A stretch of DNA of 64,000 nt. Source: Eledone cirrhosa (lineage: Eukaryota). Positions 991-61,495 of the stretch are shown here, piece after piece. How positions within the stretch are numbered: position 1 is the first letter of the stretch; each line of letters begins with the position of its first letter. The translations under genes and the position numbers were made by a program. The stretch lies in NCBI GenBank assembly GCA_964016885.1, contig OZ024759.1, forward strand, positions 31,682,001 through 31,746,000, given 5' to 3'. The notes beneath the pieces are model-generated. The model did no database searches, was not told the origin of the DNA, and worked only from the letters and a program-made list of their open reading frames with translations.

Positions 991-2529
991 GAGGAGAGAG
1001 AGAGAGAGAACATCCTGTCCACACTGTAAAGTGGTCGTGTAGGTGATACGATAAAAAGCATCCAGTCCACACTGTAAAGTGATCGTGTAGGAGACACAGT
1101 GAAAAGGCTCCCAGTACACACTGCCAATGTGGTTGGTGTTAGAAAGAGCATCCAGCCATAGAAATCAAGCCAAAATCAGTTCTGATGATCTGAATAAGGT
1201 GAAACAATTGTTCTCGGAAATGGTGAACTAACTGTTGTGGAACTACTTCTATATATATATATATATATATCTTCATAGGGCATCAGGACAGACATTGGTC
1301 TATTGGAGATGCTGGACATGGCAGCAATAATGAGGGACAGAGACCGCTGGGGAGAACTTGTCCATGGATCTCGGGAATTTTACCCGCCCTAGACATATAT
1401 CCTCTACTTTTACTAATATAAATATACATGCTTTAATCCTTTCATTACATTATTTTTAATAAAAGAGACTGCCTATGATTTTCTAAATAATTTGGAAAAA
1501 CGTAGGTTCAGTAATGAAACTCACAACCTTACAGTCATGAGCCAAACACTCTAACCACAAAGCCTCGTCTTCACAAGGTAGAGTAATGCTACAAAAACAG
1601 AAATTCTGAAACAAATTCTTTTTTTGCAGAATCATAATCTTCTATGCTTAAAACATAGAGATCTAAAAAGAAAAAAAAAACAGAAACAAGGAATAAATTA
1701 AACAGTTACCTGGGTGGCATTTTGAAACTCAACCATAATTTTTTTTTTTTTTTTAAATATTTATATGACATTTTCAAAGGACTGACATTTAAATTTAAAT
1801 ATCATTTGAAAAATTCATTGAAAATCAATGTTTTAAGTAGGTATTATAAAAATACTTTGTTACAGTCATTTGTTTAAAAAACAATCTCTTAATATCCTGT
1901 AATACCTTGTGGTTGTTGTTGGACATCTGTTGATTTCGATGATGAGTATTCCAGTTGTTCAATCAACGGAACATCCTACCAATGATAGTTAATGTGTCAG
2001 TGGCTGAGCATTCCAAAGACTCATGTACTCTTGATATAATTCTCAGGGAGACTCAGCGTGGCAGTGTGTGACAAAGGCCACCCTTTGACTTACAGGTACA
2101 GTCTATGTATTATAGAGTATTCCACAGACACATGTACCCTTAATTTAATTCTAAGGGAGATTCAGTGCGGCACTGAATTTAGAGAGTCAGACAACATGCT
2201 TTGTGGCATAGAGTTACAAACCTTTAGGTTCTGAGTTCAATATTTTAATAATTCATTTCTAGGATATAATTACATATATGTTCAGCATGTATGTACAAAT
2301 GACATACAGGATTAAATGTATGAGTAACTTTGGAGAAATAAATATTTATAAGGATAAATGTAGGGTTAGAACCTGAGACCTTTTCATTGGGGAGTGAACT
2401 TATTATAGCAACACAGCTGGTATGAGAAATGCAATGTGTTTGAGTATAAGTTATAAAGTGCTATAGACATATGATAAATAATATATATATATATATATAT
2501 ATATTAACAAATTAAATATCCCTTTTGCT

Positions 2530-3530: not shown

Positions 3531-5996
3531 TAATCAAAAACTTGATTATATATATATATATATATATAGATATGTTTCTTTATTAGCCACAGGGGCACAA
3601 AAAAAAGGGACAAATACAAAGGAGGAAGTTTACATACAATAAAAACGTGTAAAATGTTATCACAAATGCAATTTAAAAAAAAAAACAGACGTCGGTAGGT
3701 AGTTAGTTCATTGTTTTACGATCGTTTCAGAGGGTCGTTTGATCGATATCTATCTATCTAGATAGATATATATCGATCAAACGACCCTCTGAAACGATCG
3801 TAAAACAATGAACTAACTACCTACCGACGTCTGTTTTTTTTTTTATTGTTCTATGCACAAATACATGCATACACACATATATATATATATATACACACAC
3901 ACACATATATATATATATACATATACATACACACACACACACATATATATACGTATACATACTTATATATATATATTTATTCATGTATGTTCATACACGG
4001 AACAAAAAGCGCTACCTGAAGTATATATATATATATATATATGTTGCAAATTCGATCGCTTTTCCACTGTACCACCGCGCACAATCTGGGGAGATGGTCA
4101 AAGTTGGACATCTTGAAACTATATATATACATATATATATATATATACCATTGCATGTTGATATAGTTTTCGATTTCTCCCAATGAAACCTTATCACTAC
4201 TATTTTCTCTCACTCTCTCTATATATATTTATACATGTGGCGTAATATTATGGTTGATTAATTTAAAACATTCTTATAAGTAGTATATATATGTGGTATG
4301 CGGGACAGTTTTTACTACTTTTCTTTTAGTGTAATCACAGCTTTATTTCACAGTTGAATGTGTGGAATACAATGCCAATAAGAATAAAATCGTTTAATCG
4401 AATATCCCGCCATGTCACGCTAAATAAATACTTGCTATCATTTGTGTCTTGTATCTATGTCGAAAAAATAACGGACGAACTGACACGACGAGGCGTCTTA
4501 GTTTGAATTTCATATATATTAATTTCATATTTATATATATATACGTATAAATATATAAATATCTGTTTATACATGTATATATATATATACACATCTTTTG
4601 AAAAAACTTTGACGTGAAACGCATCAAAATTTCTCAACTTCTCGATTTCTTTTTGGCAAACATATTTCAGTTGAGAAACTTCTAATTATTTCTGAAAATA
4701 ATTAATATATTATTAGTTAATCAATAATATATCTATATAAATATATATTTATTTATATCTATATATATATGAAAAATGGACACCCTGATATTTACTCTGT
4801 TGAAGGAGATATATGAAGGTAACAAACATTCCCTAAAACAGTATTCTCTCCTCGAAAACTCAGGTGGTTGATAAGGAGTTTTTGATAATATTTTAATTTA
4901 TTTTATTTTAATGTTTAACAGGAAATTTTAGCTGAAACTGTGGGCTTGGAAACAAACAAAAAGAAAATCGGGTGTAATAATCAAAAAAAAATGTTAAGAG
5001 TTGCTTTTTTTATAAAAAGTTTTATTACTTAATGAATAATTTTTTTACAGAATGAAAATATAAACGCATATAATAAATATAATAAATTATAGCTAGGAAT
5101 CTTATAAATATAATACACAAAAATATATAATCAAAGCGAGAAGAAAACAAATTTAACTAAGTATTTTAGTTGAAAAGTTTGGTTGGAATTTTGAAGGTAA
5201 AATTTATTTTCCTTTCTCTTTTTCCAGTGATTTTTGATATTTTGAATGAATATGGCCTTCAAAATCTTCATAAATTATTAAATTATTGGTTTTCTGTGGT
5301 TCCTCCACTCTACAACTATATCTTTGAGTTGGGTATTATAATATAAATATACAAAAATAATGAAAAGAAATTTTTTTTTAGATAGAGCCAAATTTGTCAT
5401 ATTTATTAAACAGGTAGGACTATATATATATATATTGTACATTTATATATATATTGTACAGTTCATATATATATATATATATATATATGAAATGTACATT
5501 GAAAAAGATATATATATATATACATATATATAATAAAAAGAAATCGAAAATGTACCTGGAGTCTTATTTAAGGATATTTATTTATTTCCTTTACCAGTTT
5601 CACAGTTCTTATGCTTTTCAAAAGTAAAATTGAGATGGAGGGTTTGGACTAGAACTGTTTCATTAGTATGAAATCACCAGGAATGTCCTGTTGATTTCAT
5701 AAAAATAACATTTACTAGATGAAGCTGTACGTGGCAGAGCTGTACATATTATAAAATATAAAAGAAAACATTATGCCATAGACATTGTCATTATTAATTG
5801 TTATGTTTTTCGAAGACTGGAGGAATTTTAATATTTATTCACAGTAGAATGCGTTTGCATAGAGTAAAATAGTAAAGTTTGTTAGGAAATCGTGGGGAGG
5901 GAGACACTCATACACCTGGTTTTATTTCTGCTATAAACACATTTATTAAACACTGTTAATAGTCGTTTGTTTTTACAGGTGATACTAATAAGAAGA

Positions 5997-10102: not shown

Positions 10103-10149
<47 letters not shown>

Positions 10150-10279
10150 ATGACTACATGACTAGAACTGTTTCATTCGTATGAAATCATCAGGAATATA
10201 TTCTTCGCTCGCTTATCCTAAATCTTCAAATATATATGACATCAGTCATTTAAATTTTCTGTATGTATTTTATATATAT

Positions 10280-18449: not shown

Positions 18450-18963
18450 ATATAGCAGCATTGGCAACAAGTACAAAAACTCCACGGTCATCAGCTGTCA
18501 AAATGGATGCACAGTTTTGACACTTCCTGACAGTAATGCTGGACCATCTGGGGTCACAGAGTCTGACAAAATAGCCAAAACACTGTCTTTGGAGTATTTT
18601 ACAAGATGAATACAAAACTTGTGTGTATAGAATTAAATATAGACTTTGAAGTTTATATATATATATATATAGTGTTGATTACACAACAAAAAGCAACTAG
18701 TCCACCCTGTAATGTGGTTTGTGTTAGGAAAGGCTTTGTGCCGTAGAAACCAAGGTAAAATACAGATCTGTTTGAGCATGACGTCCCCATTTAAGCCATG
18801 CAAATGTGGAAAAATGGATGTTAAACGATGCTAAATCACACACACACACACAGGGTGTCTCAATAGTCACTATGTACTTTGAATACTAATAAGTGCAACA
18901 AAATAGATAGTAACTTTTGAAGCACACTGTGTGAGTATATTTTTATGATTTTGTGTATATATC

Positions 18964-19085
18964 TTTCCTGATGATTTCCGAATGAAACAGTTCTAGTCCT
19001 GTCGAAGCCATTTCTATATTAAAAATTTATACTCTGCTATGTATTGAGTACTTTACTTACTGTGGTTATCCCGGATTGAACCCGA
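18964..19085 (+). ncRNA. Hammerhead-bearing ~125-bp repeat (family A)
   Basis: tttc CTGATGA tttccgaat GAAACAG ttctagtc CTGTC gaag, then a tail shared with the 56444 and 57980 copies. Confidence 0.6.
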
Positions 19086-34100: not shown

Positions 34101-37100
34101 AATTTTGAAGTTTTTACTCTAATACAACTAATTTTCACAATGATCTGTCAACTAGTAAAGATAGTTCAAACATTTGAGTTAACAAGCCTGTTTTTAGATA
34201 TTTACTAGTAAATCGTTGCAGGATGTTAAGAGTTAATTTTGAAAATTAACATTTTGTTCTTGTGTTTCAAATAATTAAAAATTTGTTGCAATTTTTTGTT
34301 GTTGTTAAGCTGATGTTTAGAACATAACTTCACAAAAAGTTCTTAAAATTATATTTAACCCTTTAGCATTTACATTACACTGTATTTACAATTATATTTT
34401 CACGGTAAAGACTTTACCTCATACAATTATCTCACATAATATCGAATCTATGAGATTTTGATATTATTTATGTTGAGAACAATACCTTAACACCAGTATG
34501 TGTGGCCGGTTACAGCTGGTTTGAACAGAAAGAGGTGAGATAATTCTGGCCAGATACAGCTGGTTTAAATGCTAAAGGGTTAAAGGTTTTAACCTGGTTT
34601 TATGATACAAAACTGTTTATTCTAAACTTTATATTTATCTAAAATCTTTTCATCCTGATTTTAGATAAGAACTTTTTTAAGTTATGTTCCAAACCCCCCA
34701 AAATTTATATTACTAAAATCCAATGCTCTATATATACTATTGTACTTTCGCGGCATAGGCTTTATCTTACATAATATAGAATCTATGAGATTTTGATATT
34801 ATTGATTTTGGAAACGATACCTTAACATCAGTATCAGTGGCCAGTTATGGCCAGTTTGAACAGAAAGAGGTGAGAGAATTGTGACTGGATACAGCCAGTT
34901 TAAATGCTAAAGGGTTAAATATAATATGTTTGAAAGAAACGCACACTCATATATATGTACAAGTGTTTTAATTCATTGGTATTTTTTGAGAAGGCTTTGA
35001 AAAAAATACAGCAGTGTGTTGAATTACTTGCACATGTGTATAAGGAAAATATTGCATAATATATACACTTGATAACTAATGTATTGAGTCCTTTCTTTGA
35101 CTTGCAGTCTTCTTGAAAAATACAATTCATTTACTATTATTAAGATATATATGTAAATATTCATACATGTGTATATATATATGTGTGTGTATATATATGT
35201 ATAGGTATCTTTATATTATATAGAAATGATTTCTACAGGACAAGAACTGTTTCATTTTAGGTGTTAAAAGGTGATGATTATGATGATGGTATAATACACA
35301 CATACTCTCACCTTTTCTTTTGTTTGTACCCACACCTACATATATATATATATATATGTGTATGTATATGTAAACCATTTTTTTTAGAACCATTGAATAA
35401 TAAGGAAGCTTTTGAATTTGTAAATTAGAAGCAGCAAGGTTTTTTGACTAAGAAAAACAGTCTAATAAGTCGGGCATATAGATTAACACTGCTGTACAAC
35501 ATTTTTTCCATCTCTAGGGTTTATATACCAGACTTATTTTTCATAATCGAAAAATGTTTATCCTTTGAATTTACAAGTTCAAAAACCTATATATATTCTC
35601 TACTTTGATATTGAGCACTTTGTGTTTCCAAACCAAAATGTACAGATATATATACATACACATGCATGCAGGGTGTCCCCAAAAAATCGATACACACTTT
35701 CATTACTTGTACAGGTAATATTTATTAGAATCCTGTTGAAGTGTGTATAAATTTTTAGGGACACCTCTGTGTGTGTATATATATATATACATGTATATAC
35801 ACGTGTTTGTGTGTGTGTGTGTGTGGATGGTGTTAGGAAGGGCATCCAGCTGTAAAAACCAATACTGCTAATCCAACACCCTAATAATGATAGTAATAAT
35901 AATAGTCAAATACCCTAAATGAGAAAATCGGGTAAGATACCTCTGTCTCCAGGGGTTCTTTACTCAATTTTCAAATCTATTATTTATATTGATCAACTAT
36001 TGTTATAGTGATTTATGTCAACTAGAAGTTCATCATCATCATTTAATGTACATTTTCCACGCTTGCAGGGGTTAGATGGGTTGTTACATTAAGAGGCAAG
36101 TCGGGTCCAGAGACCATGTTTTGCTTGTATGGATCTGGATTTTCTGGTTCTGTCTCTACAGCTGGATGCCCTTCTGAATGCCTCCTGTGGGCTGGCTCTG
36201 GGTGCTTGTCGTGTCACCAACATGACCACCTTAAAGTGTGGATTGAGCAATTTTTCTTGTGTCATCAACACGACCACCCTACAGTGTGGACTGGATCATC
36301 AACACAATTACTTTACTGTGTGGACTGGGCACTTTTTCTCAGGTCACTATCAATATCACCTTACATATATATATAATCCTTATGATTTTTACATTGACTT
36401 TTCTATGCTTGCATTGGTTGGGCTGGGCTTTTTGGAGCATTGTCTTACAACCAGGTTACCCCTTTTAGTCACTTAATGTAAACTGTGTGTGTGATATATA
36501 TTGGTAATATGTGTGTATATATATATATATAGGCTGCTTGTACCTGCTTTAGAATAAGGGTGAAGGTGTGTCAAAAGGGTTAGCGTCAAGAAGAGCATCT
36601 GACTGAAAAACATTGCTTCAATAAAGACCCCTTGATTTGTATGAGACCTACTAAGTTAACTCATGCTCTTGGAGGGAAAATAACCTTAAATCCCCTGTTA
36701 TATATCTAGTGTTTATCATGGGGTTATGGTCAGGTCAAGCTTCTGTCTGTTACTGGTACCATGTAACCCAGTACAACCTGCTTCATGGTTGTGTGGTCAG
36801 TGATTAAACTGGCTCCCCCATCGAACTTTGGTCTGGTGAGGAGAGTAATTGGAACCCCAGCAGCACAGAAAGAGTTGTCAAAAGGCAGATTATTTAGTAA
36901 CATAACTTTCTCATTATCAAGTGAGGTTAGCTTTGTAATTTATTGTGTTTCATTGTGGCACCAGCACTAAAGATGATGCTGCTTGCTTGTCCAGACTGAA
37001 GAGTCCTCTTGGACTCTATATTATTATCATTATATTCATATGGTGGGCAGTGGATTGGTGGAATCATTAGTGCTGAACAAAATGCTTAGTTACAGGCCTT

Positions 37101-53635: not shown

Positions 53636-54803
53636 ATGTGATAACCCGTCTAACCCATCCAGCTGGATCAGTTGGAGACAATTGCTTCTGACAGGACCTG
53701 TTGGAAGGAGTGTTTGAGGACTCCGCCCCTCCCCCCTCTCAGGAATAAGTGACTGAAGAAGACAAAGAAGAAGAGAAGAGAGAAAAGAAACACTCAGTTG
53801 TCGTTTTTGCAAATCTTTATTTCCCACTGAATCGTCTGACGAGGGAAATTGGAAATCCTGCAATAGTTATGTTTACCAAATAAATCTCTATCTGAAGGAC
53901 TGAGTTCACAAGTCCCTGTTGTAAGTATACAAATGGAATAACCAGGGATACAAGATAGACTGATGCAATAAGATTTAACTAAATATCCCCCCTCCATACA
54001 CACGGACACATGTATATCGTGACTCATACACTGTTCACTCTCTTCACATTTCTACATTATTCTATGTACTATACATGCACCTTTGATGGGTTGTAGTGCA
54101 CCTGAGCACTGTACACATTAATTTCATTATTATTATTATTATATAAAAATTAAACAGATATTTTATATTTCGGAGGTGAACTTGTCTGGCAAATGACTTG
54201 ATCTAAGATCATGGTGTGTTGAAACTAAAGCAATTATATTGGGGAAAGAGTCATTTTAGCCACACTTGTACATGTCTGGCAAGTGATTTGATCTGAGAAT
54301 GTGTTATGTTGAAACTAAAACTAGTTAATCATTTTAGCCATCCAAATAACACACACAAAAAGCTGTTAAGTTCACTTTACATTTATTCGTTGGTGTCAAC
54401 ATTTTCGTCGTGCTGCTGGCTACCTGGTCGATGATACGGCTCTCTGTAGAGATTAAAAGAACCTAAGTCAAACTCACAGGTACGTTTATGTAAATTTTTA
54501 TTTCAGGTAGATATGAGGGTAGCGCTGAGATTTAAAACATATTTAATAAACTTTCGGGTGTGTTTTATTCCAGGGTGAATTCATTTGAAGTGGTACATAG
54601 GTAGCGCTGAGATTTAGAATAGACACAGATTTAATGAAATAAGTGAAACTTTCGATGTGTGTTTATTCCAGGACGAATTCATTTGAAGAGGTAGGTAGCT
54701 AGGGAACATTGAGATTTAATATAAAATAGACAGGAATTAAAGTAAAAGTAATGAAACTATTGATTGTCGCGGTTGAACGAAGCGTGTCTAAATTTTAACA
54801 GCG

Positions 54804-55931
54804 ATGTATAATAAGAAGAGAAACAAGGAGGAAAATAATACTGCAGATTCTGTGAATGGAGTGAGAAAGTCTGCGATGAGGAATGTAAAGGTAAATAATA
54901 ATAAAACCAAGAGAAATGAGAAATTTTTGAATGATTTGGTAGAACATTTGAAAAAAGGGGCGGGTGAAATGAATGACAACCGTGAGCGCCGTCTGTCGGT
55001 GGCGACAGCAGTTGTGCCGCCTGGCAGTGGTGAAACATCAACAAGAAAACATCAGAGGAACAAAGGAATTGTTTCTACTGCCGACAATATATGGACTGTT
55101 ACTTGTGGAAACTATAGTAGCTACTGTAATAGTAGTACTAGTAGTGGTGGTAATAGTTGTACTACTGTTGCTAATACTATCACTAATAATAGTAATAGTA
55201 GTAATAATAGCAGCAGCACCAACGCTTCCAGAAAAGACCAGAGCAGGTTCACAACCAAACCGAGGATGTCCAAAGACACGGCACGGAAGAGCACCACTGC
55301 CGTGAAAAAAACCCCGCCCCCCAAAACGCCCGAAGATGACCAAAACTCAGCCGCTTCTTCATCATCATCATCGTCATCATCCGCCAATAACAACAACAAC
55401 AATAACAACAACAACAACGAAGAAAGCAAAGATGTGGATTCGACGACGGACAACAAATCGAATCATGTTGATGGCGAAGATCCACCAGAATTGGAAACCG
55501 AACCAGAACTGGAATTGGAACTATCGGTGTCTTCTCCGATGTCCTTCGGTTCCGTCAACCCTGACACTAACCCCGATGTCAACCCTGATATTAACGACGT
55601 GAGCAATCAAAGCTCCGTTGTTAATAAAACCCAGGAGAATCCAGTGGATGGTACTCGTGAAATAGCCAAACCTAATGGTACAACTCGCAGCAAAAAGGGT
55701 GAGAACATTCCAAAGAGACGTGGAACCCGGCAACTGACCAGAGTTAGGGAAATGGACCGAGAACTGGCCGGCTGGATTAACGGTTATTACACCAATGACA
55801 GACTTGATGAACTTACACGGGACATGATCACAGACAGGGCCAGAGAGATAGCTAAAGAGAAGAACATTTTAGATTTTGCCGGTACTACTAACTGGTTTAC
55901 CAGATTCCTTGGAAGGAATTTCTCAGATGCG
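54804..55931 (+). CDS. Gene 3 large first coding exon: low-complexity region, KDTARKST peptide, CENP-B/pogo-type HTH at the 3' end
   Basis: 376 open codons ending in MDRELAGWI...LTRDMITDRAREIAKEKNILDFAGTTNWFTRFLGRN; gtgagt donor at 55932. The true start could be a downstream ATG such as 55266. Confidence 0.75.
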
Positions 55932-55936
55932 GTGAG

Positions 55937-55969
<33 letters not shown>

Positions 55970-57588
55970 TTGTTTATTGTTAATGTTAATAAATGTTGTG
56001 TTTGATATATTCAATGAAGTAGCAACAAATATAACCTTTAATCACAGAATCTATCACTTCCTTCCTATCTCTGTATCACTTATGGTTTACCAGATTCCTC
56101 GGAAGGAATTTCTAAGATGCGGTGAGTGAGTATATATATATATGTATGTTTATTGTTTGTGTAGGGTTTTGTTGATATATTCAATGATGGAGCGACAAAT
56201 ATAACCTTTAATCACATAATCTATTCCTTCCTATCTCTGTATCACTATTTCTTTCTCTCTCTCCTAGATAGTATCCAACACTTATTTTCTTATTTTCCTA
56301 AAGATTCTGTCATTTATTAAAATAATCTTATCTGTAGTTTAAAAAAAAAAAAGATTAAAGAGAAAAGTCTTAGAAAACCAGACTCCGATAAAATTGGTGT
56401 TTGTGCTGGTCCATGCCTATATATATATATATACCCGAGGAAAGCTTTCCTGATGATTTCTCTCGAATGAAACAGTTCTAGTCCTGTAGAAGCCATTTCT
56501 ATATTAAATATTTATACTCTGCTTTGTATCGAGTACCTTACTTACTATGGTTACCCCCGATTGAACCCGGGATAAACATATATATGTGTGTATATATATA
56601 TATATATAATAGTGATGTTGGTGTGTTTAGATAGATTTAGTGCATTATATTTTTATATTTATAAGGTTCCCAGTAATAATAATTGTATGTGTTTATATTT
56701 CTATTCTGTAAGAATTATTCATTTACTATTATATATATTATTTGTGTCTATATTTTCATTCTGTATTATTATATTCATAGAAAAGTAATAATAATGATAT
56801 ATTTTGTGGTGACAATAAAGTTTATATTTAGATATATGAGAATGTTTTAAAAAAAAAAAAAATAGAAATGAGTACATCACTAAACCACTAAGCTTATTTA
56901 TAAAACTAAATTACTTACAGTTGACGATAGAAATAAATAAAAATATACGAATTATGATCATAATTACAAATATAATTATAAATATAATAATAATTATTAT
57001 TTACCAAGCATGAAATGAATGACTTTTGTAAAATAATAGCAACATATATTATATATAATTCGAAAGTAACTTCCTAAGGTTTGAAAAAAATATCGAAATA
57101 TTTTTATATTTCGTTAATTTAAAAGATTCTTTTGAACTTTCATCAATCGATGTTAAATTACCTTTATTCTAATTTCTTTTGGCTATCGTTTATCTTTTCA
57201 CTCTGTTTTAAACTGACAACTTTCACATCAAAACAAGCACAAAATGTTTTTAAATATTCTTTTATTTCCCCCTAATTTCCAATTTCCACTTTTCGTATTT
57301 GCACAAGTTGTTTTAATTTCTACAGAGACAACAAACAGCAACGTGAAAATATACAGAAATTAGGTTTAACCAAAGCAAAAATATATAAATTTAATTGTAT
57401 AATTGTTTAATTATATTTTTGTTTACTCTACAAGTACTGATAATATTTACTCATGCAAATATACACGATGTTTATATCGCCATGTGCATACACACACATG
57501 TATGTATGTATGTATGTATATATATATATATACACACACACACTATAATCACTCTTTCTCTCTCTATATATATAAACATATACACCTA

Positions 57589-57632
<44 letters not shown>

Positions 57633-59389
57633 GTGTTGTGTATTTGTTTTGCAAGATTCTTGATGTGAAATCGCGTGTTGAAACCTATATTGTTATATTT
57701 GTAGACGGTCATATTACCTGTATTGCCAATAAAAAAACACACGTATCATGATTTACACTTTATCTTTATTCGAGTCGATACTCAATAAGAACATGTAAAC
57801 GAAGCTTCATCGTTTTTTTCTTATTATATATACTCTGCCTGTGATCGAGTGCTCAGATTGGACCATCACCAGTAATTCCTTGAATCACGTTTACTATATA
57901 TATATATTGTTTAACTCTTTAATATATATATATATATATATATATACATGAAAATAGAGAAATTAATATATATTTATAACCGAGTTCAATCGGGGGGTAA
58001 CCACAGTAAGCAAGGTACTCAATACATAGCAGAGTATAAATATTAATACAGAAATGGCTTCTACAGGACTAGAACTGTATCATTCGGGAGAAATCATCAG
58101 GGCTTCCTGGTGATTTCTCCCGAATGAAACAGTTCTAGTCCTGTAGAAGCCATTTCTATATTAAATATATATATAGAAGTGGTTACACAACAGTTAATTC
58201 ACCATACCGAGAACAATTGTTTCACCTTAGCGGATCCTCAGCTCGTAATGGACATGGTTATACTTAACAGGACTGAGTGCTCTACCACTACGGATATTAC
58301 CTTTCAGTGTTCTACCACTATATATATATATATATGGTTGACGGTTGAGGGAAAGAGTACTCGATACCGAAGTAGAGTTTAAATATTCATTTTATTCAGG
58401 CTAAATAGTGAGTCTTGTTACTCTGGAGTTTCACCTGTTTATCACAGGGTCACCAAGATCTATATTAAAACTCGTCCTACGGCCTTTAGTTGCTCTATAC
58501 TTTTATCTTTACCAAACTATTACTCCTATGTATATATATATATATATTTAATGTGTGTGTACACAAAGAAGAGTACTCAATACGCTATATAGTTTATTAC
58601 TGTCACAACCACTAATCAGTTTCGTATACAAACAAAAGCAAGCATACATGTGCCCGATTGCGGGAGTTTGAGCTCTTGTATTTCTTCAATGAAATTCCAA
58701 ATTATCTCCCTTAGTTGTTGTGGCAGTTGATGTTATTTAGCCCTAGGTCAAACCCCTGATTGATCAGACTTATGAAAGATATTCCTGCCATGACAATCCT
58801 TCTTGTTTTTCTATCCTTTCCTCATATATTTCATGAACACCATTATCCCAATGGAGGCCTTCTTTTTTAATAGACGGGGTGCGATTTGGGAGAGCTTTGG
58901 CTGCTGTTTTTAGCTGGTCTAGCAGCTATGTAGATGATTAGTGTTGTTAGATATGAAAGGATCAGAATTTGCAAGTAGGAAGGAAGCTGCAAAAGAGGAA
59001 GACATGGGCAGCACTACACATACACAAACTCGTGTGTGTATGTGTGTGTGGCTGTTTTTTTCCTCTTAGTGGTCTAACTTTTTATTTTCTTCTTTTATTT
59101 CTCGTTCTATCTTCTGCTGAAAGACCAACGTCTGAATCGTTATGACTCTTTCCTGTCTATATCAAGTGTCAAACTAATATATATATATCTTCCAGAAAGG
59201 TATACAGTCCTGTTATACAGTCCTAATGACCCAGAAACATGTTGATTGTTCCTCAAAGCCAGTGTTGAACAAACAGGTGACGATCGGTCACCGGCATGAC
59301 ACAGCTTCTTATCGAGCTCGTTTGTTTACAAACGAATCGGATATTATTTTTAATGTTCGATATAACCCATACGTACATATATATGTGTG

Positions 59390-59427
<38 letters not shown>

Positions 59428-61495
59428 GATATGTATATATATATATTGGGTCGTCAAGTATGAAATTTGTAGAAATTTGGTTGTTTTTTTTTTCTACAAA
59501 TTTCATACTTGATGGCCCAACATATATATACATTTCTGTGTATATATATGTGTGTGTATATATGTGTATTTATACTTACTTTCATTGTAATATATATATC
59601 TCTTCATTGGTAATGTATTGTTTTAGTGTGTTGTTTTCCCATTTACTTTTCACACACACACGCACACAATGAACTGTATCTGTAATTCCAAGGTACATCT
59701 TTGTCAAACACAGAGTCATGCTGAATCCAGCTGAGGATGTCATTAATAGGCCAAGTGTCTGTGGAATACTCAGCCACTTACACTAGGAGTGTACAGATAA
59801 ACAATCTAAAGTAGTGTGAGATCCATCATTGAATCATCTTCCTTCACCACCACCACCACCACGTTCACCACACCACCACCACCACCACAATCACAATCAT
59901 CATCATCATCATCCTGTTTATCTACTCCTCCTCATCATTGCCATCATCATCATCACCATCCTTTTTTTTCCATCCCCACCTTCATTCCCCATCACCACCT
60001 CCTTATCATCATCATTGTCATTGCCATCCTCTTCCTCATCATTGACATCACCATCCTTTTCTTTCCTCTCTATAATCACCATTCTCCTCACCACCATCAT
60101 CATTACCATCATCATCATCATCTCTGTGCTCCTTGTATCTTCTGCCATCATAATCACCATCCTTCTTTTCCTCATCATCACCATCATCCTGATGCCTGCA
60201 CTATATAGACAAGTTCCCTCCAGTACAGTTTCCTTCCACTTTTTCATTTTACTGTATCCTTTCCTTTGTGAAGTTCAGTAGCCTGAGAGAAGCCATTACT
60301 ACTTCTTTCTACACACATCTTCCTTGGTCTTCCTCTCCTGCAGCTTCCTTCCTACTTTAAACTTCTGGCATTTTCATCTCATTAAATCTTTCTCTTTTTT
60401 TTCTCTCTTTTGCAGAGTGTTAGTAAACAACTAAAAATGCTTTCTTTTGCAAATCCTGGGAAATTTATGGAAGATTTCGATCCAGAACGAAGTGCCAGGG
60501 AAATGCGTAAGATGAATCGCAGAATTTACAGAGAGAAGTATGTCTTTGTTGAACTATTTTTTTCATTTAGTGTTTTTTAATTGTGTTGCTTTAGTGGAGT
60601 CTGTGCTGCTGTATGGGTCTGAGACCTGGACACTGACCAAGAAACTCACTCAGATGGTGGATGGGTGCTACACGAGAATGCTGAGGATGGCTCTGAACAT
60701 TAATCAGTATACACTGAGGATGAAGAACTCAGAGCTGTACGGGAGCCTCCCAAAGGTCAGCTCAAGAGTAGCACAGAGGAGACTGAGGTTAGCTGGACAT
60801 GCTCACCGACATCCAGAGTTGACACTGCACTCAGTGCTCCTGTGGGAGCCCCTGCATGGACACACTGGAAGAGGAAGAACGAGGTTAACATATGTTGATG
60901 CCCTAAGGACAGGCACTGGTCTCTTAGAGACGCAGGACATGGCAGCGATAATGAGGGACAGAGACCGCAAGAGAGAACTCGTCCATCGATCTCGGGGAAT
61001 TTTTCCCGCCCTAGACATTGTGTGTAGTAAGGTTAGTGGAATGGCAATAATCGGTAGAGAGTAAAGTGGTCGTGTAGGTGACACAACAAAAAGTACCCAG
61101 TCCACACTGGAAAGTGGTTGTGTAGGAGATAGGCATTTTTATGGACCACATCAAATATTTGTGGGTTTTTTTTTACCTCTTTGCAGGTTCTCTAAGAACG
61201 TAACCCCCCACAAATACTAGGGGACAACTGTATATCACTGACACTTATTTATATTTCTGTTTGCAGTGTCAAGAAGAACCAGATGTACGATGAAGCCGGT
61301 CGGCTTCTTGATAACAGCAAAGATGTTTGTGACTGTTTGGATGAAGATTGTCCTGGTTGCCACTTCCCTTGTCGCAAGTGTGGCTCTGAAAAATGTGGCA
61401 CCGAGTGCCGCTGTAATCGGAAGTGGGTCTATGAGATGGTGGAGATTGAAGGTACCAATCTAGTGATAAACAATCCCTCCCTTACAATAGTTTAA
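54804..61495 (+). CDS. ARL14EP: Gene 3: ARL14 effector protein (C11orf46)-like with N-terminal disordered region and CENP-B-type HTH; ~492 aa in the minimal model
   Basis: Exons 54804-55931, 60416-60537, 61267-61495 join in frame (optional exon from 59196). C-terminus matches ARL14EP: LSFANPG...RE.R and YD..G.L...DVCDCLDEDCPGCHFPCRKCGSEKCGTECRCNRKWVYE.VEIEG. The link to the first exon is inferred from phase only. Confidence 0.7.
56444..56570 (+). ncRNA. Hammerhead-bearing repeat (family A), intact core, in an intron of gene 3
   Basis: gctttc CTGATGA t ttc tctc gaa t GAAACAG ttctagtc CTGTA gaagc. Confidence 0.68.
57980..58165. ncRNA. Inverted pair of family A hammerhead repeats forming a hairpin
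   Basis: Minus copy ~57980-58103 (CTGATGA, GATAC variant); plus copy 58101-58165 (ggcttc CTGGTGA...GAAACAG...CTGTA gaagcc). Confidence 0.6.
59196..59276 (+). CDS. Possible in-frame cassette exon of gene 3 (KGIQSCYTVLMTQKHVDCSSKPVLNKQ)
   Basis: ttccag acceptor, phase 0, open frame; donor either gtgacg at 59277 or gtacat at 59373. No recognisable homology. Confidence 0.3.
60416..60537 (+). CDS. ARL14EP: ARL14EP-like exon (SVSKQLKMLSFANPGKFMEDFDPERSAREMRKMNRR)
   Basis: Strong pyrimidine tract + tgcag; gtatgt donor; resembles ARL14EP LRSLQFTNPG...REKRRL. Confidence 0.88.
60585..61016 (+). mobile_element. RTE-clade LINE 3' fragment (gene 3 intron); same family at 44760-45005 (-) and 1275-1395 (+)
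   Basis: VESVLLYGSETW...RRLRLAGH...GRGR.RLTYVD; near-identical DNA at the other sites. Confidence 0.82.
61267..61495 (+). CDS. ARL14EP: ARL14EP cysteine-rich C-terminal domain exon
   Basis: CDCLDEDCPGCHFPCRKCGSEKCGTECRCNRKW; ttgcag acceptor; TAA. Confidence 0.94.

Follow-up and report, generated by a model that had tools for sequence, protein, structure and literature searches.

Penelope-like elements (PLEs) are already known to carry hammerheads in their pseudo-LTRs (pLTRs), to target (TA)n, and to bear inverted copies and one-sided tails; what the hammerhead does in them, and how their mirror ends and tails originate, are open questions in the available text of PMC8557442, PMC11167929, and PMC3846280. 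The Eledone cirrhosa repeat described here (family A) is a new family of this known kind. It shares with the Hydra clade, including Hydra-1_Obim, a single frame encoding a reverse transcriptase (RT) plus, at its C-terminal end, a GIY-YIG endonuclease, the DKT, CxCx5C, CxxC, and CxH motifs, (TA)n targets, a pLTR hammerhead with a U-U at stem II, an inverted 5' copy, and a one-sided tail, as these are set out in the accessible parts of PMC8557442. Judged against the same sections, Hydra-1_Obim is nonetheless a different family, with another hammerhead and a protein that is clearly diverged by eye, and family A departs from the clade in having RWR rather than RWK, a loop III of 8 nt rather than 1–3 nt, a tail of ~65 nt rather than 30–40 nt, and many open frames.

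Other described systems resemble family A in part. Poseidon_Ac of Anolis, like family A, has two internal RT start sites that bound its tail and a hammerhead near the ORF start, and in vitro it offers a precedent for priming from two ends, with both DNA strands cut and extended and uncut RNA as the template, as in the route proposed below; its ribozyme needs protein (PMC11167929, available sections). Its RT start sites lie inside the ORF, which begins in stem II, whereas in family A the hammerhead and both sites are located in the 5' UTR. Penelope of Drosophila virilis likewise has its transcription start in the pLTR with the hammerhead shortly downstream, although the accessible parts of PMC2377424 and PMC4209133 describe an internal promoter without a TATA box and, in the 5' UTR, an intron whose end lies at helix I, whereas in family A the promoter appears to lie upstream, with TATA at -30, and the putative start is helix I itself. 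A rotifer pLTR has been reported with a putative TATA and initiator, and palindromes were there read as antisense self-priming (PMC3846280, in part). Animal non-LTR retrozymes share the type I hammerhead (PMC7229834 and bioRxiv 10.64898/2026.07.22.740005, available text), but they are non-coding units in head-to-tail tandem (PMC7229834), whereas family A is part of a coding element whose copies are dispersed or head to head and rarely in tandem.

The window, that is, the whole 64,000-nt stretch of DNA analyzed here, had been annotated initially as containing about seven copies or fragments of family A, usually beside (TA)n. All seven were present at the places and on the strands claimed (BLAST against the copy at 56444, E 8e-8 to 2e-46), these short copies (hereafter stubs) do sit in (TA)n, and no eighth copy was detected in the 64-kb window at E<0.05 with the same query. 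The copies at 57980 (-) and 58101 (+) are the two arms of one mirror insertion, with a core change in each arm, and the window therefore holds six insertion loci. This head-to-head insertion (57970..58165) consists of a long arm at 57970–58101 (-) and a short arm at 58101–58165 (+), the latter beginning with an extra G, and both cores are mutated. The remaining loci comprise a long-arm stub with shortened stem II/loop II (18963..19084, +), a short-arm stub with damaged stems I and III (10125..10196, -), a fragment holding the 3' half of the hammerhead (35212..35256, -), another holding the 5' half with a mutated core (5646..5683, -), and the 56444 copy, the only one in the window with the core and all three stems. 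The stems had been said to hold in the consensus; the other six copies are fragmented or damaged in core or stems.

The 56444 stub (56444..56577, +) lies between (TA)n flanks; it begins at what would be base +2 of the transcript and stops at the distal site where reverse transcription would start. It had been described as intact and as ending at 56570; its core and three stems are present, but it ends at 56577 and its stem I is weakened. The predicted type I hammerhead (56444..56494, +) comprises stem I (56444–49/56489–94, with one bulged U and the outer pair lost), the core at 56450–56, an extra U at 56457, stem II (56458–60/56465–67), U 56468, GAAA at 56469–72, and stem III (56472–75/56484–87, closed by an 8-nt loop), with a predicted cut after A56488 at a GUA site. 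It thus has the type I core (CUGANGA...GAAA...UH) and three helices with helix I open, a 3-bp stem II with a U on either side, and a 4-bp stem III; the core letters, the variation of loop II, and the cut position 56488/56489 are as first annotated. Its stem I 5' strand, however, is GCUUUC (first G missing, one U bulged) and not the GGCUUC of the earlier consensus, and this strand overlaps a 14-nt palindrome at the 5' junction (56438..56451, unstranded), which competes with stem I and the first core bases and is probably the remnant of a mirror arm. Downstream, the tail (56509..56577, +), which separates the proximal end at about 56508 from the distal end at 56577, contains a hairpin with one compensatory pair. 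Rfam returned no hammerhead match on 56400–56600, and for the entire window none was among the matches listed (150 of 381), all of which were microsatellite noise.

Pairing of the ribozyme was examined across subfamilies, in which stem I reads GGCUUC/GAAGCC, AGCUUC/GAAGCU, or AGAUUC/GAAUCU, in addition to the bulged GGCUUUC form that includes 56444. Among 16 hand-picked related rows, an alignment that leaves out the bulged form, both-sided changes were found at two stem I pairs and one tail-hairpin pair, three events that do not amount to independent samples. Pairing was kept in 97% of cells compared with 25%–44% in slid controls, and none of 500 shuffles reached the score, while stems II and III are invariant and therefore uninformative. 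Core nucleotides had been expected to be better conserved than the flanks: the hammerhead region is 87% alike when the oldest subfamily is compared with the youngest (a value also obtained inside the older one), against 58%–65% for the promoter side, but the 3' tail matches the ribozyme in conservation, and by this measure alone the core does not stand out. Per-column conservation among dead copies is flat outside loop II and, being shaped by the search pattern, provides no test of the core. Core and stems were kept in 17 of the 74 arms at loci selected without a hammerhead query. The U-U at the base of stem II, initially labelled non-canonical, does fall outside the textbook consensus, but it is a common form in the Hydra clade, present in 14 of 25 published families by our own count from the published table (PMC8557442, in part). 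The axolotl hammerhead HHR_Amex2 also has a U-U at the helix II base and shows weak cleavage (22% in one hour; PMC7229834, available text). In family A, the 8-nt loop III permits a monomer fold, and two strands are also predicted to pair into a dimer (-14.2 kcal/mol). Fold predictions computed without tertiary terms, to be read as relative values only, gave the hammerhead a share of 0.03 with the best clean start and of 1e-4 to 6e-4 in the young subfamily; even the highest of these is a minor state.

Homology to the best copies continues upstream by 135 bp, 170 bp, two (GT)n-led subunits, and a microsatellite to the end of a GIY-YIG frame. The 125-bp unit was accordingly ruled out as the entire element, since its homology extends via the promoter and these parts to the ORF. 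A protein search yielded 23,625 candidate RT pieces, and among the 150 scored, many had open frames of at least 758 aa. A sister version of the hammerhead lies 174–175 nt before the ATG of a 714-codon RT/GIY-YIG frame in 17 of 20 loci chosen for long frames; a second direct copy follows 4.3–6.1 kb after the ATG in 12 of the 20, several have an inverted copy upstream, and family-A-type tails in loci L123 and L126 lead into the same ATG. Where both hammerhead copies are present, the unit between them spans 4.5–6.3 kb, larger than the generally under 3 kb of the Hydra clade, a tendency that is not diagnostic (PMC8557442, in part), and the excess is microsatellite-rich 3' sequence.

The single ORF of 714 codons encodes an RT followed by a C-terminal GIY-YIG endonuclease, with YRDD at 346 and YIG at 602, DKT (in place of DKG) at 115, CxCx5C at 566, CxxC at 666, and CxH at 694; its RWR at 37 is a conservative change from RWK, and the second His of CCHH is absent by eye, as in the published Hydra alignment. 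Insertion into (TA)n and a hammerhead in the pLTR, both characteristic of the clade, were likewise found. Naiads were ruled out as the identity of the element, which has a C-terminal endonuclease, DKT, and a hammerhead, whereas the available text of PMC8557442 gives Naiads an N-terminal endonuclease, DKA, and no canonical hammerhead. Pfam does not name the protein, and GIY-YIG falls below the cut-off in one of four relatives; a partial relative with 62% identity was named from Octopus vulgaris, and low-depth contigs of run X4 overlap the ORF, to which we attach no weight as evidence. Family A is almost certainly Penelope-like in origin, so that the early suspicion of a Penelope pLTR was right and can be narrowed to the pLTR/5' UTR of a Hydra-type PLE (17 of 20 loci, protein motifs), the apparent placement in the clade resting on motifs and a by-eye comparison with the published alignment. 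We consider it very probable that family A is the hammerhead-bearing pLTR/5' UTR of a PLE with Hydra-clade motifs and that its copies are short reverse transcripts of uncut RNA.

Several further observations concern the parent element and its neighbors. A consensus-like splice donor occurs ~70 nt past the stop codon in L296:5649, L305:5841, and five more loci; it precedes a 2–4 kb microsatellite region that varies between copies, possibly a retained 3' intron. A 43-bp piece of the upstream part is found in a tandem array of more than 20 units (L079:1500–3150), zinc-finger-like sequence found upstream in L077/L078 was dismissed as locally duplicated, and Penelope-like frames of other families occur at L126:6917–9055, L017:1720–2184, and L090.

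Family A is abundant, as first proposed: an exact 30-mer of the 56444 copy occurs 5,881 times in the 3.0-Gb genome, while its reversed control does not occur at all. Sampling 39 stretches at round coordinates (390 kb) yielded 11 arms in 8 insertion loci, or about 60,000 family A loci when extrapolated to the genome (Poisson range roughly 27,000–120,000). Most of these stubs begin at the first base of stem I. Of 77 older-type arms at loci taken from short patterns or round coordinates, 63 have their start no more than 7 nt from the core, and upstream bases are kept in about 12 of 100 listed older-type copies (by eye), compared with about 62 of 100 listed copies of the young subfamily. In 48 of 55 arms that retain the promoter, TATAAA precedes stem I by exactly 30 nt (search range 23–38); promoter-bearing arms also have CCAAT near -80. 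A TATA box at -30 is the mark of initiation by polymerase II, and a cap read by a reverse transcriptase appears as one additional G. At junctions between a stub and an A/T run, stem I was preceded by G in 69, C in 3, and A/T in 28 of the 100 listed out of 105 (hand count), while the parent element has C at this position in 21 of 25. The extra G is less clean in the young subfamily (46 G, 21 C, and 33 A/T among 100 listed of 275), in which it can also derive from the complement of the other stem I strand. Together these junctions suggest that the RNA of the element probably starts at the first base of the predicted hammerhead, although the extra G could instead be an untemplated addition at any RNA end or a feature of a short master copy. 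Among the openly accessible literature matches listed, none described transcription beginning at a hammerhead's first base, or a footprint of the cap in stubs of PLEs.

Two clusters make up the 3' ends, with 37 of 77 near +65 and 31 near +120 to +135, and a 4-bp hairpin follows behind each of the two ends. The hairpin behind the distal end has a constant 4-bp stem and a variable loop (L305:3575–3600, with equivalents in L123, L126, and L138). Of 52 close mirror pairs, 42 combined a long and a short arm, none was long with long, 3 were short with short, and 7 were other, although a long query had been used to pick the loci behind some of the pairs, a bias that would favor long with long; overall, long and short arms are about equally common (120 and 130). 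No pile-up of junctions was found at the cut site: once overlapping rows had been merged by hand, it had 13, compared with 21 for an equal TA lying 8 nt upstream.

We weighed two other origins for the stubs. The initial annotation had favored a non-autonomous or retrozyme-like family; in such a case the stubs would propagate themselves, SINE-like or as retrozymes, from a short master of their own and circular RNA with a borrowed PLE protein. Stubs do far outnumber ORFs (partly a rough depth sum over contigs, and contig depth is not copy number), their ends are sharp, a few direct tandem copies exist (L191/L192, and one trimer), and retrozymes have been proposed to derive from pLTRs (bioRxiv 10.64898/2026.07.22.740005, available text). 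Yet every stub subfamily has a promoter-bearing or ORF-linked counterpart, the upstream TATA is absent from the stubs, the cut site lacks the junction pile-up, and the stubs are mostly single or head to head, whereas retrozymes form head-to-tail arrays (PMC7229834, in part). With the repeat tied to the ORF, the copies are better regarded as cut-short products of an autonomous element than as a separate family, the dispersed or head-to-head arrangement leaves the retrozyme comparison unsupported, and we judge self-propagation decidedly improbable. Alternatively, the common 5' end could reflect RT stalling or fold-back at stem I on a longer RNA, with the extra G untemplated or a junction base. 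Fold-back junctions via stem I homology were indeed seen, and head-to-head palindromes have been attributed to self-priming on an antisense template (PMC3846280, available sections). However, fold-back in subfamily A1 would leave stem I preceded by A or T rather than G, the extra G also occurs directly after plain (TA)n, and the end falls exactly 30 nt past the TATA box in subfamilies with differing spacer sequences, making stalling or fold-back unlikely.

The explanation we prefer, a TATA-driven start at the hammerhead followed by reverse transcription of uncut RNA, could operate as follows. RNA polymerase II would start at the first base of stem I, and the transcript would be capped. On the model of the in vitro results for Poseidon_Ac, the element protein would nick (TA)n and use both DNA ends as primers, each at a different one of the two internal sites. 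A cDNA begun in the 5' repeat copy would run off at the cap, copying it as the extra G, and the two cDNAs would then be joined head to head. From uncut RNA as template, 5'-repeat priming would thus yield promoterless stubs, which, having no upstream promoter, would be dead; 3'-repeat priming would give longer, 5'-truncated copies, and the promoter would be regained only via a partial tandem. Cutting would be slow, perhaps assisted by protein or a dimer, ~45 nt from the cap, and would also sever the downstream copy; a cut at +45 would uncap the RNA ahead of the AUG and so limit the element. Uncapping of element RNA as the role of the ribozyme is a tentative proposal, and we lean slightly against it. 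The composite reading, with stubs as LTR-like "strong-stop" cDNAs made from sense, uncut RNA at both break ends, a TATA-driven start at the hammerhead, and the ribozyme as an uncapping switch, seems to us evenly poised between right and wrong on the sequence patterns described. If true, it would explain the need of PLEs for a partial tandem to be active and would make two-ended priming on the sense strand a better account of their head-to-head repeats than antisense self-priming. A young, apparently intact element with tens of thousands of stubs provides ends that predict the start site to the base.

The 56444 copy lies in sense orientation within an intron of gene 3 (54792–61495, +), a gene that combines a long low-complexity N-terminal part, a weak CENP-B/Tc5-type HTH, and an ARL14EP-type C-terminal domain; domain searches gave a weak HTH match (PF03221, below the cut-off) and ARF7EP_C (PF14949). 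One X4 contig joins 55430–55927, 60415–60537, and 61267–61555, and the GT/AG sites and the frame fit. This contig spans the exons, and the host intron (GT..AG) is therefore 55932..60415 (+), between exons that end at 55931, occupy 60416–60537, and start at 61267, and splicing occurs in that sample at least; X4, a run whose kind is not on record, is treated as RNA only on account of this one spliced contig. The copy is thus intronic and sense between the HTH and ARL14EP exons as annotated, but the further exon at 60416–60537 also lies between them.

Cleavage of the gene 3 pre-mRNA by this copy had also been suggested, and it would allow the ribozyme to tune the gene. The sense orientation in the intron, the presence of the core and three stems, and an 8-nt loop III that allows a monomer fold are in its favor. 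Nevertheless, the predicted fold share of the 56444 copy is ~1e-7 with 30–100 nt of its own upstream flank and 3e-4 without the flank, against 0.03 for a clean start, and the X4 contig joins the three exons across the intron. PLE hammerheads are furthermore described as slow or protein-dependent (PMC4209133 and PMC11167929, in part), and introns cut by a slow hammerhead can still splice (PMC2995048, citing others, available text). Cleavage is possible but poorly supported, with the fold predicted to be disfavored in context and a spliced contig crossing the intron; that the copy cuts the pre-mRNA and tunes gene 3 is highly improbable. We regard the 56444 insertion as probably an ordinary, dead stub that affects gene 3 little.

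Other hammerheads were also observed. A second family (B) is present in the window at 58171–58330 (-), with its core at 58241, and at 1182–1254 (+); it has a palindromic 8-nt stem III and the same stem II U-U, and the 58241 copy is antisense in the gene 3 intron. The 5' junctions of family B are spread, with no sharp start and no clear extra G. Elsewhere, L127:1–3200 consists of eleven head-to-tail 310-bp units with a hammerhead in each, a retrozyme-like array. At least three further hammerhead families occur (L073, L077, L070, L080, L060, L125, and others), and in two of them a TATA-like run is found ~46 nt before the core.
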